Below, one piece after another: positions 42,336-55,953 of a stretch of 64,000 bases of DNA. Origin of the DNA: Erythrobacter sp. (GTDB lineage Bacteria > Pseudomonadota > Alphaproteobacteria > Sphingomonadales > Sphingomonadaceae); assembly GCA_025698865.1 (NCBI GenBank), contig JAILWQ010000002.1, positions 144,385-208,384 on the forward strand, written 5' to 3'. Positions within the stretch are counted from its first letter, which is position 1. Each line of letters starts with the position of its first letter. The notes under the pieces were generated by a model that had not been told where the DNA came from, did not search any database, and saw nothing but the letters and a program-made list of their open reading frames with translations. A program made the position numbers and the translations under genes.

Positions 42336-42641
42336 ATGAAGTTCCGTATCGCGCTTGCCGCTCCCGCCCTCCTCGCGCTCGGCCTTGCGGCCTGCGGCAG
42401 CTCCGACGACGCTTCGACCGAAGCCGAGGTCGACACGGTCGAAATCCCCGCCAACGACGCGCTCGAAGGTGTGAACGAGGCCCCGGTGGTCGATCCCGAC
42501 GCGACCGTCACGACCGAGCCTTCCGATGTCCAGACCACCGACGAGGCCGCCGCCAACGAGGCGCAGGGGATCGAGGACGCCGGCAACAACGCTGCCGACA
42601 CCGCCGCCGCCGCGATGGACGAGATGGACCTCAACGAGTGA
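42336..42641 (+). CDS. Small acidic lipoprotein, unknown function
   Basis: GGAG SD; MKFRIALAAPALLALGLAAC lipobox; D/E/A/T-rich low-complexity body. Confidence 0.8.
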   Translation: MKFRIALAAPALLALGLAACGSSDDASTEAEVDTVEIPANDALEGVNEAPVVDPDATVTTEPSDVQTTDEAAANEAQGIEDAGNNAADTAAAAMDEMDLNE

Positions 42642-42859
42642 TCTTCCGGCGCGCGCTCGCGATTGTGACGCTGTCCATGGCAGGGCTCGCCTCGTGTGGC
42701 CCTGCGGACACCGACCCGGGACCGGGCGGCGTCACCGTGGGGGAAGCGCGCGCGCTGGACGAAGCGGCGGCAATGATCGAAGAACGCCGCACCCCGGCCG
42801 AAGCGCTGGCCGGTGAACAGACAACGCAGGACGAGAATGGAGACGATGCCGGTGAATGA
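42638..42859 (+). CDS. Small lipoprotein, unknown function
   Basis: GTG overlaps the upstream TGA; lipobox LASC; 'GPGGVTVGEARALDEAAAMIE' core. Confidence 0.7.
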   Translation: MIFRRALAIVTLSMAGLASCGPADTDPGPGGVTVGEARALDEAAAMIEERRTPAEALAGEQTTQDENGDDAGE

Positions 42860-42863
42860 GGGA

Positions 42864-44024
42864 ATGGACAGCGAGACTTTCGACCAGTTCCTCGACCAGC
42901 TGCATCGCTACGTCCGCGAACGCCTGATCCCGGCGGAAGCCGAGGTCATCGCCGAGGACAGGATTCCCGACGACATCCTTGCCGAGATGAAGGAAATGGG
43001 CCTGTTCGGCCTGACCGTGCCCGAGGAGTTCGGCGGCGCGGGGCTCAGCATCACGCAATATGCCAAGGTCGTGCATGCGATGGCCTATGCCGCGCCGGCC
43101 TTCCGCTCGATCTTCTCGATCAATGTCGGCATGTTCAATTCCGCGATCAAGAATGGTGGGACCGAGGCACAGAAGGCCGAATGGTGGCCCAGGATCGCCG
43201 AGGGTTCGATCGCTTGCTTCGGCCTGACCGAACCGGGCTCGGGCAGCGACAGCGCCGCCATGCAGACCTCCGCGCGTCCCGATCCTACGGGTAATGGCTG
43301 GATCCTCAACGGCACGAAGCGGTACATCACCAACGCACCCCACGCCGATGTCGCGCTGATCATGGCGCGGACCGAAAAGGAGGCGCAGCCCAAGAACGCC
43401 CATGTCAGCGCTTTCATCGTTCCGATGGACACGCCCGGCGTCTCTGTCGGCAGTCCGGACAAGAAGATGGGTCAGGCGGGCAGCCATATCGCCGACGTGA
43501 TGCTCGACGATGTCCATGTGCCGGGCGATGCGCTGCTCGGCGGCGAAACGGGACAGGGCTTCCGTTTCGCCATGATGAGCCTCGACAATGGCCGCATATC
43601 GGTCGGCGCGGCGAGCGCGGGCTATGCGCGCCGGGCGCTCGACAGCGCGACGAAATATGCCAGCGAACGCCAGGCCTTTGGCGAACCGATCGCCAATTTC
43701 CAGCTGATCCAGCAGATGCTGGCGGAAAGCTGGACCGAAATCTACGCCGCCGAGGCTATGATGGCCGACGTGACCGCGCGGGTCGACCGGGGCGAGAACA
43801 CGGTCAAGCACGCCGCCGCCTTCAAGGTGTTTGCCTCCGAGATGTGCGGGCGCGTGGTCGACCGGGTGGTGCAGATCTATGGCGGAGCCGGCTATCTCGC
43901 CGAATACGACGCGGAACGCTTCTTCCGCGATGCACGCATCTACCGCATCTACGAAGGGACCACGCAGATCCTCCAGTTGCAGATCGCCAAACACATGCTG
44001 CGCGATTTCGCCGCCGGGCTCTGA
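42864..44024 (+). CDS. Acyl-CoA dehydrogenase
   Basis: 'GLFGLTVPEEFGG', 'FGLTEPGSGSD', 'LNGTKRYITN', 'ERQAFG', 'QIYGGAGY', 'RIYEGTTQI'. Confidence 0.95.
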   Translation: MDSETFDQFLDQLHRYVRERLIPAEAEVIAEDRIPDDILAEMKEMGLFGLTVPEEFGGAGLSITQYAKVVHAMAYAAPAFRSIFSINVGMFNSAIKNGGTEAQKAEWWPRIAEGSIACFGLTEPGSGSDSAAMQTSARPDPTGNGWILNGTKRYITNAPHADVALIMARTEKEAQPKNAHVSAFIVPMDTPGVSVGSPDKKMGQAGSHIADVMLDDVHVPGDALLGGETGQGFRFAMMSLDNGRISVGAASAGYARRALDSATKYASERQAFGEPIANFQLIQQMLAESWTEIYAAEAMMADVTARVDRGENTVKHAAAFKVFASEMCGRVVDRVVQIYGGAGYLAEYDAERFFRDARIYRIYEGTTQILQLQIAKHMLRDFAAGL

Positions 44025-44029
44025 ACGGT

Positions 44030-45289
44030 TTGCACAATTTCCTGAAAGGGCTGTCGTTGCTGGAAGTCTCCAGCTTCGTCGCCTCGCCCACGGTCGGCCT
44101 CTATTGCGGCCAGTTCGGGGCGGAGGTGATCCGGGTGGATCATCTCGAGGGCGGACTCGATTACGACCGCTACATGCTGGCCGACAATGGCCGCTCGCTG
44201 GCCTGGGAAAATCTCAACCGGGCGAAGAAATCCGTCGCGCTCGACCTGCGGAGCGGGGAAGGGCGCGAATTGTGCGTCGAGCTGGCGCGCGCGACCGGCC
44301 AGTGTGTCACCAACCTGCCGGAGAAGAGCTTCCTCTCCCATCCCGCCATGGCCGATGGGCGCGAGGACATGATCAGTGTCCGCATCATGGGCTGGCATGA
44401 CGGGCGGCAGGCGATGGACTTCACGGTCAACGCGGCGAGCGGCTATCCGTTGATGACCGGGCCGGCCGAATGGGATTCGGAAGCAGCGCCGCCGGTCAAC
44501 CAGCTGATGCCGGCCTGGGATTTCCTCACCGGGGCCTATTGCGCCTTCACCCTGCTCGCCGCGCTCCGCCATCGCGACGCGACCGGCGAGGGGGCGGAGA
44601 TCCGCGTGCCGCTGGGCGATGTCGCCATCGGCACGCTCGCCAATTCCGGCACGATGGCGGAAATGCTGTATCGCGGGGGCGACCGCGAGCGGCTGGGCAA
44701 CGCCATATGGGGTGCGTTCGGGCGCGACTTCCTCAGCCGCGACGGGGTGCGCTTCATGGTCGCCGCGCTAACTGCCAAGCAGTGGTCGGGCATCGTCGAG
44801 GCCTTCGGTCTGGCGGACGCCATCGGCGCGCTCGAAAACGAACTTGGCGTCCGCTTCGCCGATGGTGATGCTCCTCGCTTCGAGCACCGCGAGCGCCTGT
44901 TCGCGCTGTTTCAGGAGGTCGCGGGGCAGCACGATTATGCCGCTCTAGAGAAGCGCATGGCCGCCGCAGGCACGACCTACGAGCGCTATCGCACGCCTTA
45001 CGAGGCGGCACGCGATCCGGCGCTGGTGGGTGACAATCCGCTGTTCGCCATGACCGAGGACAATCCGAGCGGCGAGGCCTATCCCGCCGCGCGCAGCTTC
45101 GCCAACACGCCCGGCGCGGACCGCCCGGCCCCGTCACGCGCGCCCTATCTCGGCGAACATACCGAGGAGGTCCTGGCCGAAAGGCTCGGCCTGTCCGGCG
45201 CCGCGATCGGCAGTCTGATCGACCGGGGCATCGCCGCGCCGAGCGATGCGGGGCGCGACTATTCCCATCGCCGGCTCTCGCCTGCCTGA
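44030..45289 (+). CDS. Family III CoA transferase, most similar to mesaconyl-CoA C1-C4 transferase (2-methylfumaryl-CoA isomerase)
   Basis: 'SFVASP', 'GAEVIRVD..GGLDY', 'LNRAKKSVALDL', catalytic 'PVNQLMPAWD', 'LGDVA', 'GNAIWGAFGRDF'; TTG start. Confidence 0.75.
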   Translation: MHNFLKGLSLLEVSSFVASPTVGLYCGQFGAEVIRVDHLEGGLDYDRYMLADNGRSLAWENLNRAKKSVALDLRSGEGRELCVELARATGQCVTNLPEKSFLSHPAMADGREDMISVRIMGWHDGRQAMDFTVNAASGYPLMTGPAEWDSEAAPPVNQLMPAWDFLTGAYCAFTLLAALRHRDATGEGAEIRVPLGDVAIGTLANSGTMAEMLYRGGDRERLGNAIWGAFGRDFLSRDGVRFMVAALTAKQWSGIVEAFGLADAIGALENELGVRFADGDAPRFEHRERLFALFQEVAGQHDYAALEKRMAAAGTTYERYRTPYEAARDPALVGDNPLFAMTEDNPSGEAYPAARSFANTPGADRPAPSRAPYLGEHTEEVLAERLGLSGAAIGSLIDRGIAAPSDAGRDYSHRRLSPA

Positions 45290-45355
45290 GGGCCGGCCAG
45301 CGAACCGCAAGCAGCGCCGTTTGTAACTGGCGGCGGAAGGGACTAGATTGCTCCC

Positions 45356-46297
45356 ATGGCCACACTCGCTGAACCCGAACAGGATTTCACCCGCCTTCCG
45401 GACATGCCGGAGAACGTCTTCACCGCGCCGCTCAAGCGCCCCGAACATGTCGGCGAGGACTGGCTGGAGCCGAAGCAGACCGAATATGACAGCGAGGACG
45501 ATACGATCTGGAACGATCTCTTCGCCCGCCAGATGGAGGTCCTGCCCGGCCGCGCCGCGACCGCCTTCATGGAAGGCACGGAGAAGCTCGACCTGGGTCG
45601 CGGCGGCGTGCCGGATTTCGGCCAGCTTTCGGAAGAACTGGGCAAGCTGACCGGCTGGAGCGTCGTGCCGGTGCCGATGCTGATCCCCGACCACGTCTTC
45701 TTCTGGCACCTCGCCAACCGCCGCTTCCCCGCGGGCAATTTCATTCGCACCCGCGAGACCTTCGACTACATCCAGGAACCCGACGTCTTCCACGACGTGT
45801 TCGGGCACGTGCCGATGCTGACCGATCCCGTCTACGCCGACTACATGCAGGAATACGGCAAGGCAGGATGGAAGGCGATGCGCCATAACCGGCTGAAAGC
45901 TTTGGGCGCGCTCTACTGGTACACGGTCGAATTCGGCCTGATCGAGGAGAAGCCGGGCGACATCCGGGCCTATGGCGCGGGCATCCTCTCCGGCCCGACC
46001 GAGGTGGTCTATGCAGTCGAGGCCGCCAGCCCCAACCGGATCATGCTCAATGTCGACCGGGTGATGCGGACCGATTACGTCATCAGCGACCTGCAACCGA
46101 CCTATTTCGTGATCGACAGTTTCAAGGACCTCTACCACCAGACGGTGGAGCGGGATTTCGACAAGCTCTACCGCAATCTCGGCGCGGGCTTCACCTATGC
46201 CAACACGGCGGTGATCGACGTTGACCACGTGCTCAATCGCGGCACGCTGGAATACACCTTGCGCGGCGGCCGGGGGAGCGGCGCCAGCCCGGTTTGA
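45356..46297 (+). CDS. phhA: Phenylalanine 4-monooxygenase
   Basis: 'YIQEPDVFHDVFGHVPML' Fe ligands, 'LYWYTVEFGL', 'AYGAGILS'. Confidence 0.96.
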   Translation: MATLAEPEQDFTRLPDMPENVFTAPLKRPEHVGEDWLEPKQTEYDSEDDTIWNDLFARQMEVLPGRAATAFMEGTEKLDLGRGGVPDFGQLSEELGKLTGWSVVPVPMLIPDHVFFWHLANRRFPAGNFIRTRETFDYIQEPDVFHDVFGHVPMLTDPVYADYMQEYGKAGWKAMRHNRLKALGALYWYTVEFGLIEEKPGDIRAYGAGILSGPTEVVYAVEAASPNRIMLNVDRVMRTDYVISDLQPTYFVIDSFKDLYHQTVERDFDKLYRNLGAGFTYANTAVIDVDHVLNRGTLEYTLRGGRGSGASPV

Positions 46298-46367: not shown

Positions 46368-46395
46368 AAAACGGCCCCGGATCGCTCCGGGGCCG
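46368..46395 (-). terminator. Intrinsic terminator of the minus-strand lipoprotein gene (may also stop phhA)
   Basis: AAAA-CGGCCCCGGA-TCGC-TCCGGGGCCG; perfect 10-bp stem. Confidence 0.8.
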
Positions 46396-52438: not shown

Positions 52439-52453
52439 TTGTGCGTTGCACAA
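52439..52453 (+). promoter_or_regulatory. PhaR operator candidate upstream of phaZ
   Basis: TTGTGC-GTT-GCACAA palindrome; TGCGTTGCACAA fits the reported rhizobial PhaR consensus TGCRNYGCASMA. Confidence 0.65.
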
Positions 52454-52532
52454 GAGCGGGTTGATCGCCACCTTGGAGCAGATAGGACAGACATCCGGCC
52501 GCGCGAGAATGCGGCATCGCAGGGGAAACGCA

Positions 52533-53780
52533 TTGCTTTACCACGCCTACGAACTGCAGCGCAGCTGGCTCAATTCCGCCAGCGCCTGGGCCTCGATCGG
52601 GGCGGAAATGCTATCCAACCCGGCGCTGCCGATGAATTATATGGGCGGCTACATGGGGCTCGGACCCGTGGCGGCGAGCGCGCTGGAAGTGTTCGCCCAC
52701 GCCACCATCACCCGTGGCAAGCCCGCCTGGGACATCAAATTCGTCGAGATCGCGGGCGAGCCCGATCCGGTCGAGGAAGCGACCGTGGTCAACAAGCCCT
52801 TCGGCGATCTGAAGCGCTTCCGCCGCGCCGGGCTTCCGGATGACGCACCCCGCCTGCTGATCGTCGCGCCGATGAGCGGGCACTACGCCACGCTGCTGCG
52901 CGGCACGGTCGAGCGGATGATCGAGAGCTGCGAGGTCTACGTCACCGACTGGGTCGACGCGCGCACCGTGCCGCTGAGCGAGGGCGAGTTCGACCTCGAC
53001 GACTATATCGACTATCTCGTCGAGTTCCTGCGCTTCATCGCTGAAGAGGGCGAAGGCGGCGCGGCGCACATGATGGCGGTGTGTCAGCCCTCCGTCCCAG
53101 CCTTTGCCGCCACCGCGCTGATGAACGGGCAGGACGATCCCGCCGCGCCGAAAACGCTGACCATGATGGGCGGCCCGATCGACACCCGCGAATCGCCAAC
53201 CGGCGTCAACGATCTCGCCATGGACCGCCCGATCGAGTGGTTCCGCCAGAGCGTGATCGCCACCGTGCCGATGCAGTATCGCGGCGGCGGGCGGCGGGTC
53301 TATCCCGGCTTCCTCCAGCTCGCCGGCTTCATGAGCATGAATCTCGGCAACCACCTGATGAGCCATTACGAGATGTTCAAGCATCTCACCGAAGGCGACG
53401 AGGAAAGCGCGCAGGCGACAAAGGATTTCTACCGCGAATATCTCTCGGTCTGCGACATGACCGCCGAGTTCTACCTCCAGACCGTGGAGGAGGTGTTCCA
53501 GAAGCACTCGATCCCCAACGGCACATTCGCGCACAGGGGCGAAACGGTCGATCTCGGCGCGATCGACACCACCGCGCTGCTGGCGATCGAGGGCGAGCGC
53601 GACGACATCTCCGGCATCGGCCAGACCAGGGCCGCGCTCAAGCTCACCCCCGGCCTGCCAGAGGCGAAGAAGCGCTACTACCTGGCCGAAGGCGCCGGGC
53701 ATTACGGCATTTTCAACGGCAGCAAATGGCGCGAGAAGATCGCCCCGGTGGTCGAAGAATTCATGGCCGCCCACGGGTGA
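52533..53780 (+). CDS. phaZ: Intracellular polyhydroxyalkanoate depolymerase
   Basis: 'LIVAPMSGHYATLLR', 'VTDW', 'FDLDDYIDY', 'AVCQP', 'MMGGPIDTR', 'EGERDDI', 'GHYGIF'; TTG start. Confidence 0.94.
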   Translation: MLYHAYELQRSWLNSASAWASIGAEMLSNPALPMNYMGGYMGLGPVAASALEVFAHATITRGKPAWDIKFVEIAGEPDPVEEATVVNKPFGDLKRFRRAGLPDDAPRLLIVAPMSGHYATLLRGTVERMIESCEVYVTDWVDARTVPLSEGEFDLDDYIDYLVEFLRFIAEEGEGGAAHMMAVCQPSVPAFAATALMNGQDDPAAPKTLTMMGGPIDTRESPTGVNDLAMDRPIEWFRQSVIATVPMQYRGGGRRVYPGFLQLAGFMSMNLGNHLMSHYEMFKHLTEGDEESAQATKDFYREYLSVCDMTAEFYLQTVEEVFQKHSIPNGTFAHRGETVDLGAIDTTALLAIEGERDDISGIGQTRAALKLTPGLPEAKKRYYLAEGAGHYGIFNGSKWREKIAPVVEEFMAAHG

Positions 53781-53843
53781 CGACCCGGCGGACGGCAGAT
53801 CGCGCATTTCCGCTGTCCTTCCGATAGGCTGCGAAGCGGACGC

Positions 53844-54167
53844 ATGATCGCCCTCGTCTATATCGGAGCAGCGCTGGCCGAGATTGCGGGCTGCTTCGCG
53901 TTCTGGGCATGGCTGCGCCTCGACAAGCCGATCTGGTGGCTCGTCCCGGGGATGGTTGCCCTGGCCCTCTTCGCGTTCCTGCTGACACTCGTCGATGCGG
54001 AACACGCCGGTCGCACCTATGCGGCTTATGGGGGTGTCTACATCGTCTCCGCGATAGCGTGGCTGTGGCTGGTCGAAGGTGCGAGGCCCGATCGGTGGGA
54101 CCTGATCGGCGCGGTTGTCTGTCTGGGCGGCGCGGCCATTATCCTGTTCGGACCGCGACCCGGGTAA
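53844..54167 (+). CDS. YnfA (UPF0060) small membrane protein
   Basis: '[13 protein letters not shown]', '[12 protein letters not shown]', 'PDRWD..G'. Confidence 0.92.
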
Positions 54168-54213
54168 GGCCTCGGGGAGTGCTCTCCTGCGACGACGACC
54201 GTATTACCATATG

Positions 54214-54244
54214 AAAAAGGCGGCCGGATCGTCTCCGGCCGCCT
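54214..54244 (-). terminator. Intrinsic terminator of the thiolase operon
   Basis: AAAAAGGCGGCCGGA-TCGTC-TCCGGCCGCCT. Confidence 0.85.
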
Positions 54245-54268
54245 CTTCGCGTCACGCTGAGCGTTCGA

Positions 54269-55447
54269 TCAGAAAATCTCGAACAGGCCCGCCGCGCCCA
54301 TGCCGCCGCCCACGCACATGGTGACGACTCCGTATTTGGCGCCCCGGCGCTTGCCTTCGAGCAGGACGTGGCCGGTGCAGCGCGCGCCGGTCATGCCGTA
54401 GGGGTGGCCGATCGAGATGGAGCCGCCCGAAACGTTCAGCTTGTCATTGTCGATGCCGAGCTTGTCGCGGCAGTAGAGCACCTGCACCGCGAAGGCTTCG
54501 TTCAGCTCCCAGATGCCGATATCGTCGACCTTGAGATCGAACCGCTCGAGCAGCTTGGGGATAGCGAAGATCGGGCCGATGCCCATCTCGTCGGGCTCGG
54601 TGCCGGCGACCGCCATGCCGACATAGCGACCGAGCGGGGTCAGGCCCTTCTGCTCGGCGATTTTGGCTTCCATCAGCACGCTGGCGCTGGAGCCGTCGGA
54701 CAGCTGGCTGGCATTGCCCGCGGTGATCGTGGTGCCTTCGCCCATCACCGGCTTGAGGCTGTTGAGCCCTTCCAGCGTGGTCTCGGGGCGATTGCCCTCG
54801 TCCTTGGCGATCGTCACCTCGACGTCGGAGATTTCGCCGGTTTCCTTGTCCTGCACCTTGTGGGTGGTGGACACGGAGACGATCTCGTCGTCGAAGCGGC
54901 CCTCTTCCTGCGCCTTGGCGGTGCGCTGCTGCGACTGGAGGGCATATTCGTCCTGCTGTTCGCGCGAGATGCCGTAGCGCTGGGCGACCGTTTCGGCGGT
55001 CTGAAGCATCGGCATGTAGATCGCGCCGTGCATCTGCATCAGCTCGGGATCGGGCATCACGCGCATTTCCTTGGTCTGCACGAGGCTGATCGATTCCTGA
55101 CCGCCGGCCGCGACCACGTCCATCCGGTCGGTGATGATCTGCTTGGCGGCGGTGGCGATGCTCATCAGGCCGCTCGAACACTGGCGGTCGATGGTCATGC
55201 CGCTGGTGCCGATCGGGCAGCCGGCGCGCAGCGCGACCTGACGGGCGAGGTTGCCGGCCTGGGTGCCCTGCTGGAGCGCGCTGCCCCACAGCACGTCGTC
55301 GACCTCGCCCGGCTCGATGCCGGCACGCTCGATCGCGGGCTTGAGCGAATAGGCGCCGAGAGTCGGCCCCTTGGTGTCGTTGAACCCGCCCTTGTAGGCG
55401 CGGCCGATGGCGGTGCGGGCGGTGGAAACGATGACTGCGTCACGCAT
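54269..55447 (-). CDS. Acetyl-CoA C-acyltransferase (thiolase)
   Basis: '[11 protein letters not shown]', 'IDRQCSSG', '[11 protein letters not shown]', 'ELNEAFA', 'GHPYGMTG', 'TMCVGGGMG'. Confidence 0.96.
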
Positions 55448-55473
55448 GGAAGAACTCCTTGGAATAGTGAGGC

Positions 55474-55495
55474 CCCTCCCCGCTCGCGGGGAGGG
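55474..55495. repeat. Intercistronic GC hairpin (REP-like)
   Basis: CCCTCCCCG-CTCG-CGGGGAGGG between maoC and the thiolase. Confidence 0.45.
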
Positions 55496-55503
55496 AAAAC
55501 GGT

Positions 55504-55953
55504 TCAGACGAAGACCTGCATGATCCATTCGGTGATCAGGGCGGGCTTGTCCTCGCCCTCGATCTCGATGGTGATCTCGCTGGTCTGCTGCCACTGGCCG
55601 GGGCGCTTCTCGATCATCTCGACCAGCTTCCAGTGACCGCGAATGCGCTTGCCGCTGCGGACCGGGTTGATGAAGCGGGTTTTGTTGCCGCCGTAATTGA
55701 CGCCCATCTTCGCGTTGTCGACCTTGGGCAGGTCGGAATTGGCGGAGAGATAAGGGATCATCGAGAGCGTGAGGAAGCCGTGGGCGATCGTGCCGCCGAA
55801 GGGCGTCATCTTGGCCGCTTCCTCGTTCACGTGGATGAACTGGTGATCGCCCGTCGCCTCGGCGAACTGGTTGATCCGTTCCTGGCTCATCTCGACCCAT
55901 TCGCTGGTGCCGATGGTCTCGCCGGTCTTTTCTGCCACTTCCTGCGGGGTCAT
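55504..55953 (-). CDS. MaoC/NodN-family dehydratase
   Basis: '[19 protein letters not shown]', '[12 protein letters not shown]', '[11 protein letters not shown]'. Confidence 0.93.

Follow-up and report, generated by a model that had tools for sequence, protein, structure and literature searches.

An acyl-CoA dehydrogenase and Mct-like CoA-transferase gene pair in Erythrobacter, and its four-gene counterpart in relatives

To our knowledge, the CoA-transferase Mct is known from autotrophic CO2 fixation only. The literature that was searched describes few intramolecular CoA-transferases, these being Mct, ThnP and IaaL, the last of which works in both modes. In anaerobic naphthalene degradation the wrong carboxyl of an asymmetric dicarboxylate bears the CoA after thiolase action, and the intramolecular CoA shift by the family I enzyme ThnP feeds a dedicated acyl-CoA dehydrogenase (ACAD), ThnO (PMC11659651). 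The thiolase of the mml pathway makes methylsuccinyl-CoA (PMC6449761). The itaconate/methylsuccinate cluster of Pseudomonas (Ict, Ich, Ccl and PA0879, a dehydrogenase for (RS)-methylsuccinyl-C4-CoA) contains neither an Mct nor a thiolase, its intermolecular Ict makes C4 esters only, and methylsuccinyl-C1-CoA is a dead end for bacteria that possess only a C4-specific dehydrogenase (PMC12290011). Here we describe a gene pair for an ACAD and an Mct-like family III CoA-transferase in a 64,000-nucleotide stretch of an Erythrobacter sp. genome (assembly GCA_025698865.1, contig JAILWQ010000002.1, positions 144,385 to 208,384), which is referred to as the window. The main new result is the genomic context of this pair, which is a four-gene operon in relatives and a two-gene, eroded form here.

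A sequence-only reading of the window, made by a model, had placed the two genes 5 nt apart, and this was confirmed (open reading frames 42864-44024 and 44030-45289, gap acggt). It had also proposed that they form a C5-dicarboxylate module. The Ich-like hydratase encoded in the orthologous operons and a GCDH-type arginine motif in the ACAD speak for that part of the proposal, but the module is not free-standing and appears instead to be a truncated four-gene operon. The features concerned are as follows.

42864..44024, + strand: ACAD ('w-type', 386 amino acids), ATG start and TGA stop at 44022-44024, identified with Pfam
44025..44029, + strand: 5-nt spacer acggt from the ACAD stop to the transferase TTG, by direct reading of the sequence
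44030..45289, + strand: Mct-like family III CoA-transferase (419 amino acids, TTG start), identified with PF02515, TIGR04253, PDB matches and a tree
45290..45355, no strand assigned: 66-nt junction to phhA, defined by synteny with Erythrobacter sp. NAP1 and other genomes
45356..46297, + strand: phenylalanine-4-hydroxylase-like gene phhA (Biopterin_H), identified with Pfam, the conserved synteny anchor downstream

Orthologous loci and the eroded operon

Of 24 genus-mates, 23 carry an orthologue of the transferase, and the remaining one is a genome that is only 70% complete. Outside the genus, 40 genera of the family were covered, 6 of them with orthologues of at least 66% identity and 13 with some Mct-like gene, and sampling at the phylum level gave a superfamily member in 25 of 401 genomes. 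The nearest full-length representatives (P0125 and P0130) lie on contigs of only ∼3 kb, which carry no informative gene context. The named homologues come from Qipengyuania, Erythrobacter and Altererythrobacter. The gene list of the window, which has a GC content of ∼67%, consists of the open reading frames kept by a GC3 filter; genes at the loci of lower-GC relatives were called by tblastn with reference proteins and not by GC3.

The gene directly upstream of the transferase encodes an ACAD with the FRS motif described below in all loci that were fetched (from 11 of the 23 orthologue-bearing genus-mates) and in all inspected loci of other genera that have this transferase clade, and hence the adjacency of the two genes is not a matter of chance. 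A thiolase gene comes after the transferase in almost all inspected loci, and one for a ∼280-residue double-hot-dog MaoC-type hydratase is usually next. The thiolase is of the NF004853 type (661–663 bits, over the cut-off of that family), and the only PDB matches of the hydratase are to the itaconyl-CoA hydratase of P. aeruginosa (8khg/8huc, E 2.4e-49). The four-gene form, comprised of ACAD, Mct-like transferase, thiolase and hydratase, was found in Erythrobacter sp. NAP1, in the genomes labelled G509, G477, G493, G497 and g19, and in most genus-mates. Between lolA and the M13 peptidase gene the NAP1 locus shares synteny with the window, and its order is ACAD, transferase (NAP1_14073), thiolase, hydratase, four further genes and phhA. 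No paper on this transferase clade, on a characterised member of it or on the NAP1 gene was found in the literature. A three-gene form without the hydratase is present in G003, G017, G437, G499 and G487, and the two-gene form is confined to the genome of the window and its nearest relative, G023 (93% identical).

Since the thiolase and the Ich-like hydratase, and in NAP1 more genes, occupy the position of the junction 45290..45355 in relatives, the junction is probably a deletion scar. On this comparison, the pair in the window is best described as an eroded remnant of a four-gene operon that is common in the Erythrobacteraceae. The sequence-only reading had remarked that no hydratase or lyase is adjacent, which is true of the window but is a derived state at the level of the strain, as the loci of relatives carry the hydratase. 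The window genome and G023 are separated by a dS of ∼0.41, and dN/dS between them is 0.034 for the ACAD, 0.088 for the transferase and 0.037 for phhA; the transferase is 93% identical to its G023 counterpart versus 97% for its neighbours. The low dN/dS values indicate that the ACAD–transferase pair is maintained and is not decaying.

A paralogous Mct-like gene lies in a conserved cluster of ∼12 genes at two further loci, L024 (G020:C7:14000-33999) and L078 (G497:C8). The products of this cluster are a regulator of the TetR type, a carotenoid-synthesis-like membrane protein (PF04240), a 262-residue protein, an FRS-motif ACAD, a cupin-like 190-residue protein, a 3-hydroxyacyl-CoA dehydrogenase, the Mct-like protein, a MaoC hydratase, another ACAD, a crotonase, a thiolase and a TonB-dependent receptor. 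Divergent genes encode two acyl-CoA ligases and a CaiB protein.

Family placement of the transferase and the dehydrogenase

The transferase matches PF02515 (CoA_transf_3) over its full length (172.5 bits, profile positions 1-366 of 366) and has the catalytic Asp in a PAWD context, and on these two grounds it belongs to family III. Its best NCBIfam match is TIGR04253 (2-methylfumaryl-CoA isomerase; 304.7 bits, profile positions 2-401 of 403), and the next family scores 71.4 bits. The best PDB matches are the two solved Mct enzymes, from Chloroflexus (8apq, 286 bits) and Roseiflexus (7xkg, 284 bits), followed by a formyl-CoA transferase with 70 bits, so that Mct is the top-scoring characterised relative by a wide margin and over a full-length alignment. 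These scores bear out the Mct-like assignment of the sequence-only reading, and the motifs on which it was based (GGLDY, PVNQLMPAWD and GNAIWGAFGRDF) are all present in the translation. When 1.84 billion representative proteins were scanned exhaustively with HMMER, 164 were matched at E<=1e-30, many of which are fragments. The small size of this set and the gaps in score indicate that the Mct-like superfamily is small and stands well apart from the generic CaiB/BaiF enzymes. In a maximum-likelihood tree of 37 of its sequences the superfamily falls into two groups, and the orthologue group of the window is nested inside an alphaproteobacterial clade with support of 100/100, its sisters being G080 (53% identity) and then paralogues with 47-50%. 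The transferase, which is the sole Mct-like gene product of the genome, is thus placed by profile and tree within the Mct superfamily; it does not group with the generic CaiB/BbsF transferases, which had been set beforehand as the outcome that would refute the earlier assignment.

The residues that underlie the intramolecular mechanism of Mct were taken from the structural 'cork-up' study (PMC9813914), with Mct numbering, and read off an alignment of 37 rows. In Mct, Leu or Ile at position 43 narrows the entrance, Arg47 occupies the place of the mobile glycine loop and, together with Tyr136, holds the free carboxylate of mesaconyl-CoA, and Ile74, Arg75, Phe101 and Arg104 form the 'cork' around adenosine (PMC9813914). 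The transferase keeps Leu43, Asp44, Arg47, Arg75, Asn100, Asp135 and the catalytic Asp165, the last of which corresponds to its own Asp164. Arg47 is invariant throughout the superfamily, and the transferase sequence shows no tetra-glycine loop. The cork positions 74, 75, 101 and 104 are Leu, Arg, Leu and Lys, so that charge and hydrophobicity are kept while the aromatic stack is lost.

All three ACAD domains (Acyl-CoA_dh_N, _M and _1) were detected by Pfam in the ACAD, the catalytic Glu lies in YEGT within a conserved IYRIYEGTTQ, and no NCBIfam equivalog was reached. In GCDH, Arg94 of helix E together with Ser95 and Ser98 binds the omega-carboxylate of the substrate. The helix-E sequence AFRSIFSIN of the ACAD aligns with the (F/Y)RSxxSVQ of GCDHs, with the Arg, the Ser at +1 and the Ser at +4 in register, and we take this to be the motif of human GCDH Arg94. 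When an 81-residue helix-E segment was compared with the PDB, GCDHs made up 9 of the top 10 matches; for the full-length protein they score ∼163 bits and rank about 50th. FRSxxS is found in every ACAD whose gene adjoins an Mct-like gene of this clade and also in the ∼50% relatives of these ACADs, and among the other ACADs of the genome the FRS motif occurs only in the true GcdH (contig C1). A helix-E arginine (Arg87) likewise binds the substrate carboxylate in GDH (PMC5798300). The motif, which the ACAD has in common with the dicarboxylyl-CoA-specific GCDH, supports a dicarboxylyl-CoA as the substrate.

Surroundings of the pair

The TTG start of the transferase matches the ATG-encoded N termini of its orthologues (MY(D/Q/N)LL, MYDFLKGLS and the like) in the alignment. 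No Shine-Dalgarno sequence precedes it in the spacer and, given this and the spacer length of only 5 nt, translational coupling to the ACAD is likely. A terminator scan found no terminator-like site in the junction 45290..45355. A strong GC-rich palindromic hairpin at 46372-46395, just past the stop of phhA, is the sole convincing site of this kind between the ACAD and that point, which is consistent with a single transcript of ACAD, transferase and phhA. A functional link to phhA, through acetoacetate activation in Phe/Tyr catabolism, was considered and rejected, phhA being a mere synteny neighbour that we do not count among the pathway genes: as many as six genes separate it from the transferase in NAP1, and in g19 it was not found within ∼3.7 kb downstream.

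The neighbours of the pair in the window are recQ (divergent), a small lipoprotein-like open reading frame, phhA, uppP and an M13 peptidase gene. The small frame (42526-42816) lies 5' of the ACAD, and its product has an acidic tail as well as a lipobox-like LASC; in NAP1 its place is taken by two small frames that are not annotated. At 52446-55953, a PHB depolymerase gene (+) and the genes of a thiolase (-) and a 149-residue MaoC/PhaJ-like hydratase (-) resemble a cluster for polyhydroxyalkanoate turnover. These are the only thiolase and MaoC genes of the window and are unrelated to the pair.

A proposed route and its alternatives

Gene identities, family placement, residue conservation, synteny and selection are observations, whereas for the substrate, the direction and the intramolecular mode we infer the following route. 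The function that we favour, tentatively and short of conviction, is a shunt in which the pair, or in relatives the operon, would carry methylsuccinyl-/mesaconyl-C1-CoA to the C4 ester; the fuller operon probably breaks down small branched dicarboxylic acids. The ACAD would be an FAD-dependent dehydrogenase for short dicarboxylyl-CoA esters, and the transferase, being of the Mct type, would shift CoA between the carboxyls of one dicarboxylate without releasing it. In the first step, analogous to MmlC, the NF004853-type thiolase would split a precursor of the 4-methyl-3-oxoadipyl-CoA type into acetyl-CoA and a 2-methylsuccinyl-C1-CoA-like ester. The ACAD would then oxidise methylsuccinyl-C1-CoA to mesaconyl-C1-CoA, which the Mct-like enzyme would convert to mesaconyl-C4-CoA, and the Ich/Meh-like hydratase would form (S)-citramalyl-CoA, to be cleaved into acetyl-CoA and pyruvate by a Ccl-type lyase encoded elsewhere. 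The enzymes assigned to the first four steps are encoded together in most Erythrobacteraceae.

The proposed system would therefore work like Mct combined with Meh/Ich chemistry in a catabolic setting. It would share the downstream chemistry, from mesaconyl-C4-CoA through citramalyl-CoA to acetyl-CoA and pyruvate, with the Pseudomonas itaconate cluster, and the operon hydratase of relatives, which follows the transferase and is of the Meh/Ich type in function, is Ich-like. Its logic of an intramolecular shift that serves a dedicated ACAD recalls ThnP and ThnO, although those involve a family I rather than a family III transferase, a bulky cyclohexane substrate and an anaerobic sulfate reducer as host. 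Unlike that of Mct, the setting is a heterotrophic Erythrobacteraceae genome. The association with mcl, mch and meh of the 3-hydroxypropionate bi-cycle was not found, the neighbours being the ACAD, joined in relatives by a thiolase and an Ich-like hydratase. No crotonyl-CoA carboxylase/reductase (Ccr) over the cut-off was found in the genome, and the ethylmalonyl-CoA pathway was accordingly rejected as source or sink.

In the strain studied here the retained pair would rely on an unlinked thiolase on contig C20 and on an unlinked Ich-like hydratase and Ccl-like lyase on contig C29. The one operon-type thiolase (NF004853) of the genome, at C20:364484-365692, is directly followed by a gene for a SUGCT-like CoA-transferase (NF052585, 533 bits versus a 750-bit cut-off). 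The two genes (G000:C20:364484-366921; L065 9485-11940) lie beside proB and are shared with G023 only (97%), and not with G012. The C20 thiolase is 73-80% identical to the operon thiolases, flat regardless of relatedness. Both this flat identity and the restriction of the thiolase–CaiB pair to G023 led us to reject a translocated operon thiolase, and a separate or acquired copy is more likely. A search of the genome for ich and ccl, which the sequence-only reading had called for, returned one Ich-like hydratase and a Ccl-like lyase, both in a cluster on C29 (G000:C29:101369-107317; L066 6370-12318) that also encodes an aldehyde dehydrogenase, an ACAD and a CaiB/Ict-like protein and that is an itaconate/methylsuccinate cluster of the Pseudomonas type (PMC12290011). 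The hydratase is the only Ich-like one in the genome (190 bits to 8khg), and the best PDB matches of the CitE-type lyase are 9nzb and 8khl ('acyl-CoA lyase beta chain'). As G023 is without a close copy of this hydratase (best match 45% identity), the C29 cluster may have been acquired recently.

Several findings weigh against the proposed shunt. The transferase falls below the equivalog cut-off of TIGR04253 (304.7 versus 725 bits), as does its NAP1 orthologue (296 bits), and none of the 20 full-length superfamily representatives, with 305-584 bits, reaches 725. Its group forms an alphaproteobacterial clade of its own, set off by a long stem (0.51 substitutions per site). Position 136 is Phe in the transferase and the whole orthologue clade and Tyr in 28 of 28 other aligned superfamily sequences, the clade-specific W48Y and P49M (RWP to RYM) lie at positions that are conserved in all or nearly all other rows of the alignment, and F101L and R104K affect residues that pack against the adenosine cork. 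Because the cut-off is failed and Tyr136 is gone, the transferase is not an Mct equivalog, and the earlier reading of it as Mct itself is not supported. The kept and the clade-changed Mct residues together suggest that most of the machinery of a sealed, intramolecular reaction is present, with a remodelled acid pocket, and the long stem with Y136F, W48Y and P49M suggests that the substrate may differ from mesaconyl-CoA. The full-length ACAD resembles SCAD (274 bits, the top PDB match, with VLCAD and general ACADs next) more than the Mcd structures (191 and 160 bits; PDB 6es9 is an Mcd). The N-terminal extension of ∼170 residues, the Ala285/Phe287 pocket for the methyl at C2 and a cluster of three Arg are traits of Mcd (PMC5798300); the ACAD, with 386 residues, has no such extension, has a canonical Phe (CFGLTEP) at the position of Ala285, and has a single helix-E Arg. 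The sequence-only reading had assigned it to the subfamily found in itaconate clusters, but it is only 28% identical to the C29-cluster ACAD, which is without the FRS motif and is used here as a stand-in for PA0879. The ACAD is therefore, as far as these comparisons go, neither Mcd-like nor of the itaconate-cluster type. Finally, the partner genes on C20 and C29 are unlinked to the pair and the C29 cluster is not shared with G023, and none of the four-gene operons contains a 3-hydroxyacyl-CoA dehydrogenase or a lyase; the four operon enzymes would fit the linear scheme without need for the former.

The alternative that survives best, which we nonetheless consider rather unlikely, retains the same enzyme logic and assigns it to another dicarboxylate, such as glutaryl-/glutaconyl-, 2-methylglutaryl- or adipyl-CoA or a different asymmetric dicarboxylyl-CoA from the beta-oxidation of branched dicarboxylates, with CoA being moved to the oxidisable end. 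This would account for the clade changes Y136F, W48Y, P49M and H159Q on a long branch (H159, changed from PVNH to PVNQ, being more variable than the other clade-changed positions), for a helix-E region nearer to GCDH, whose C5 substrate is linear, than to Mcd, and for the presence of paralogous Mct-like genes within full beta-oxidation clusters (HADH, crotonase, two ACADs, thiolase, acyl-CoA ligases and TonB receptor), and it has a precedent in ThnP/ThnO. However, the operon hydratase is specifically Ich-like, which suits C5-branched enoyl-CoAs, a canonical GcdH is already encoded in the genome, and glutarate and adipate are symmetric, making a CoA shift needless.

It is less likely still, and in our view improbable, that the transferase is a common family III enzyme with intermolecular activity (such as succinyl-CoA:dicarboxylate) that activates a free acid for the ACAD in the manner of gcdH-gcoT or Ict-Mcd. 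Pairs of ACAD and CaiB genes are common, one of them being in the C29 cluster of this genome, F101L and R104K lie where Mct packs against the adenosine of CoA, and IaaL shows that both modes are possible for family III. Against this, the residues that in Mct constrict the entrance and take up the room of the mobile glycine loop, Leu43 and the invariant Arg47, are retained, the tetra-glycine loop is not seen, the transferase is nested in the Mct superfamily far from the intermolecular families, and a separate SUGCT-like intermolecular transferase adjoins the unlinked C20 thiolase. It is very improbable that the pair consists of functionless relics of the operon, or of a fatty-acid ACAD and a CaiB protein that are both generic and have no task in common, since despite the loss of the thiolase and hydratase from the locus, the TTG start without a Shine-Dalgarno sequence and the faster evolution of the transferase relative to its neighbours (93% versus 97% identity to G023), both reading frames are intact, dN/dS since divergence from G023 is 0.03-0.09 (dS 0.41), many genera preserve the pairing and the transferase is not a generic CaiB.

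A more far-reaching hypothesis, which is possible but doubtful, is that the Erythrobacteraceae clade with Y136F and W48Y represents a new specificity among intramolecular CoA-transferases and, with the GCDH-motif ACAD, forms a dedicated salvage shunt for 'wrong-end' CoA esters. Branched dicarboxylyl-CoAs of the C1 type, which are dead ends in Cupriavidus, would thereby be made usable by an itaconate-type Ich/Ccl module, and the shunt would be sufficiently modular to function with unlinked genes once the operon has eroded. The stepwise erosion from four to three to two genes, with the ACAD–transferase core still under selection, suggests that these two enzymes are the indispensable and mutually dependent part of the system. 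If the conserved operon around an Mct relative in heterotrophs functions as proposed, isomerisation of the position of CoA would be a general catabolic device for asymmetric dicarboxylates, and it would fill a gap stated in 2025, namely that methylsuccinyl-C1-CoA is without a known catabolic exit outside the ethylmalonyl-CoA pathway.

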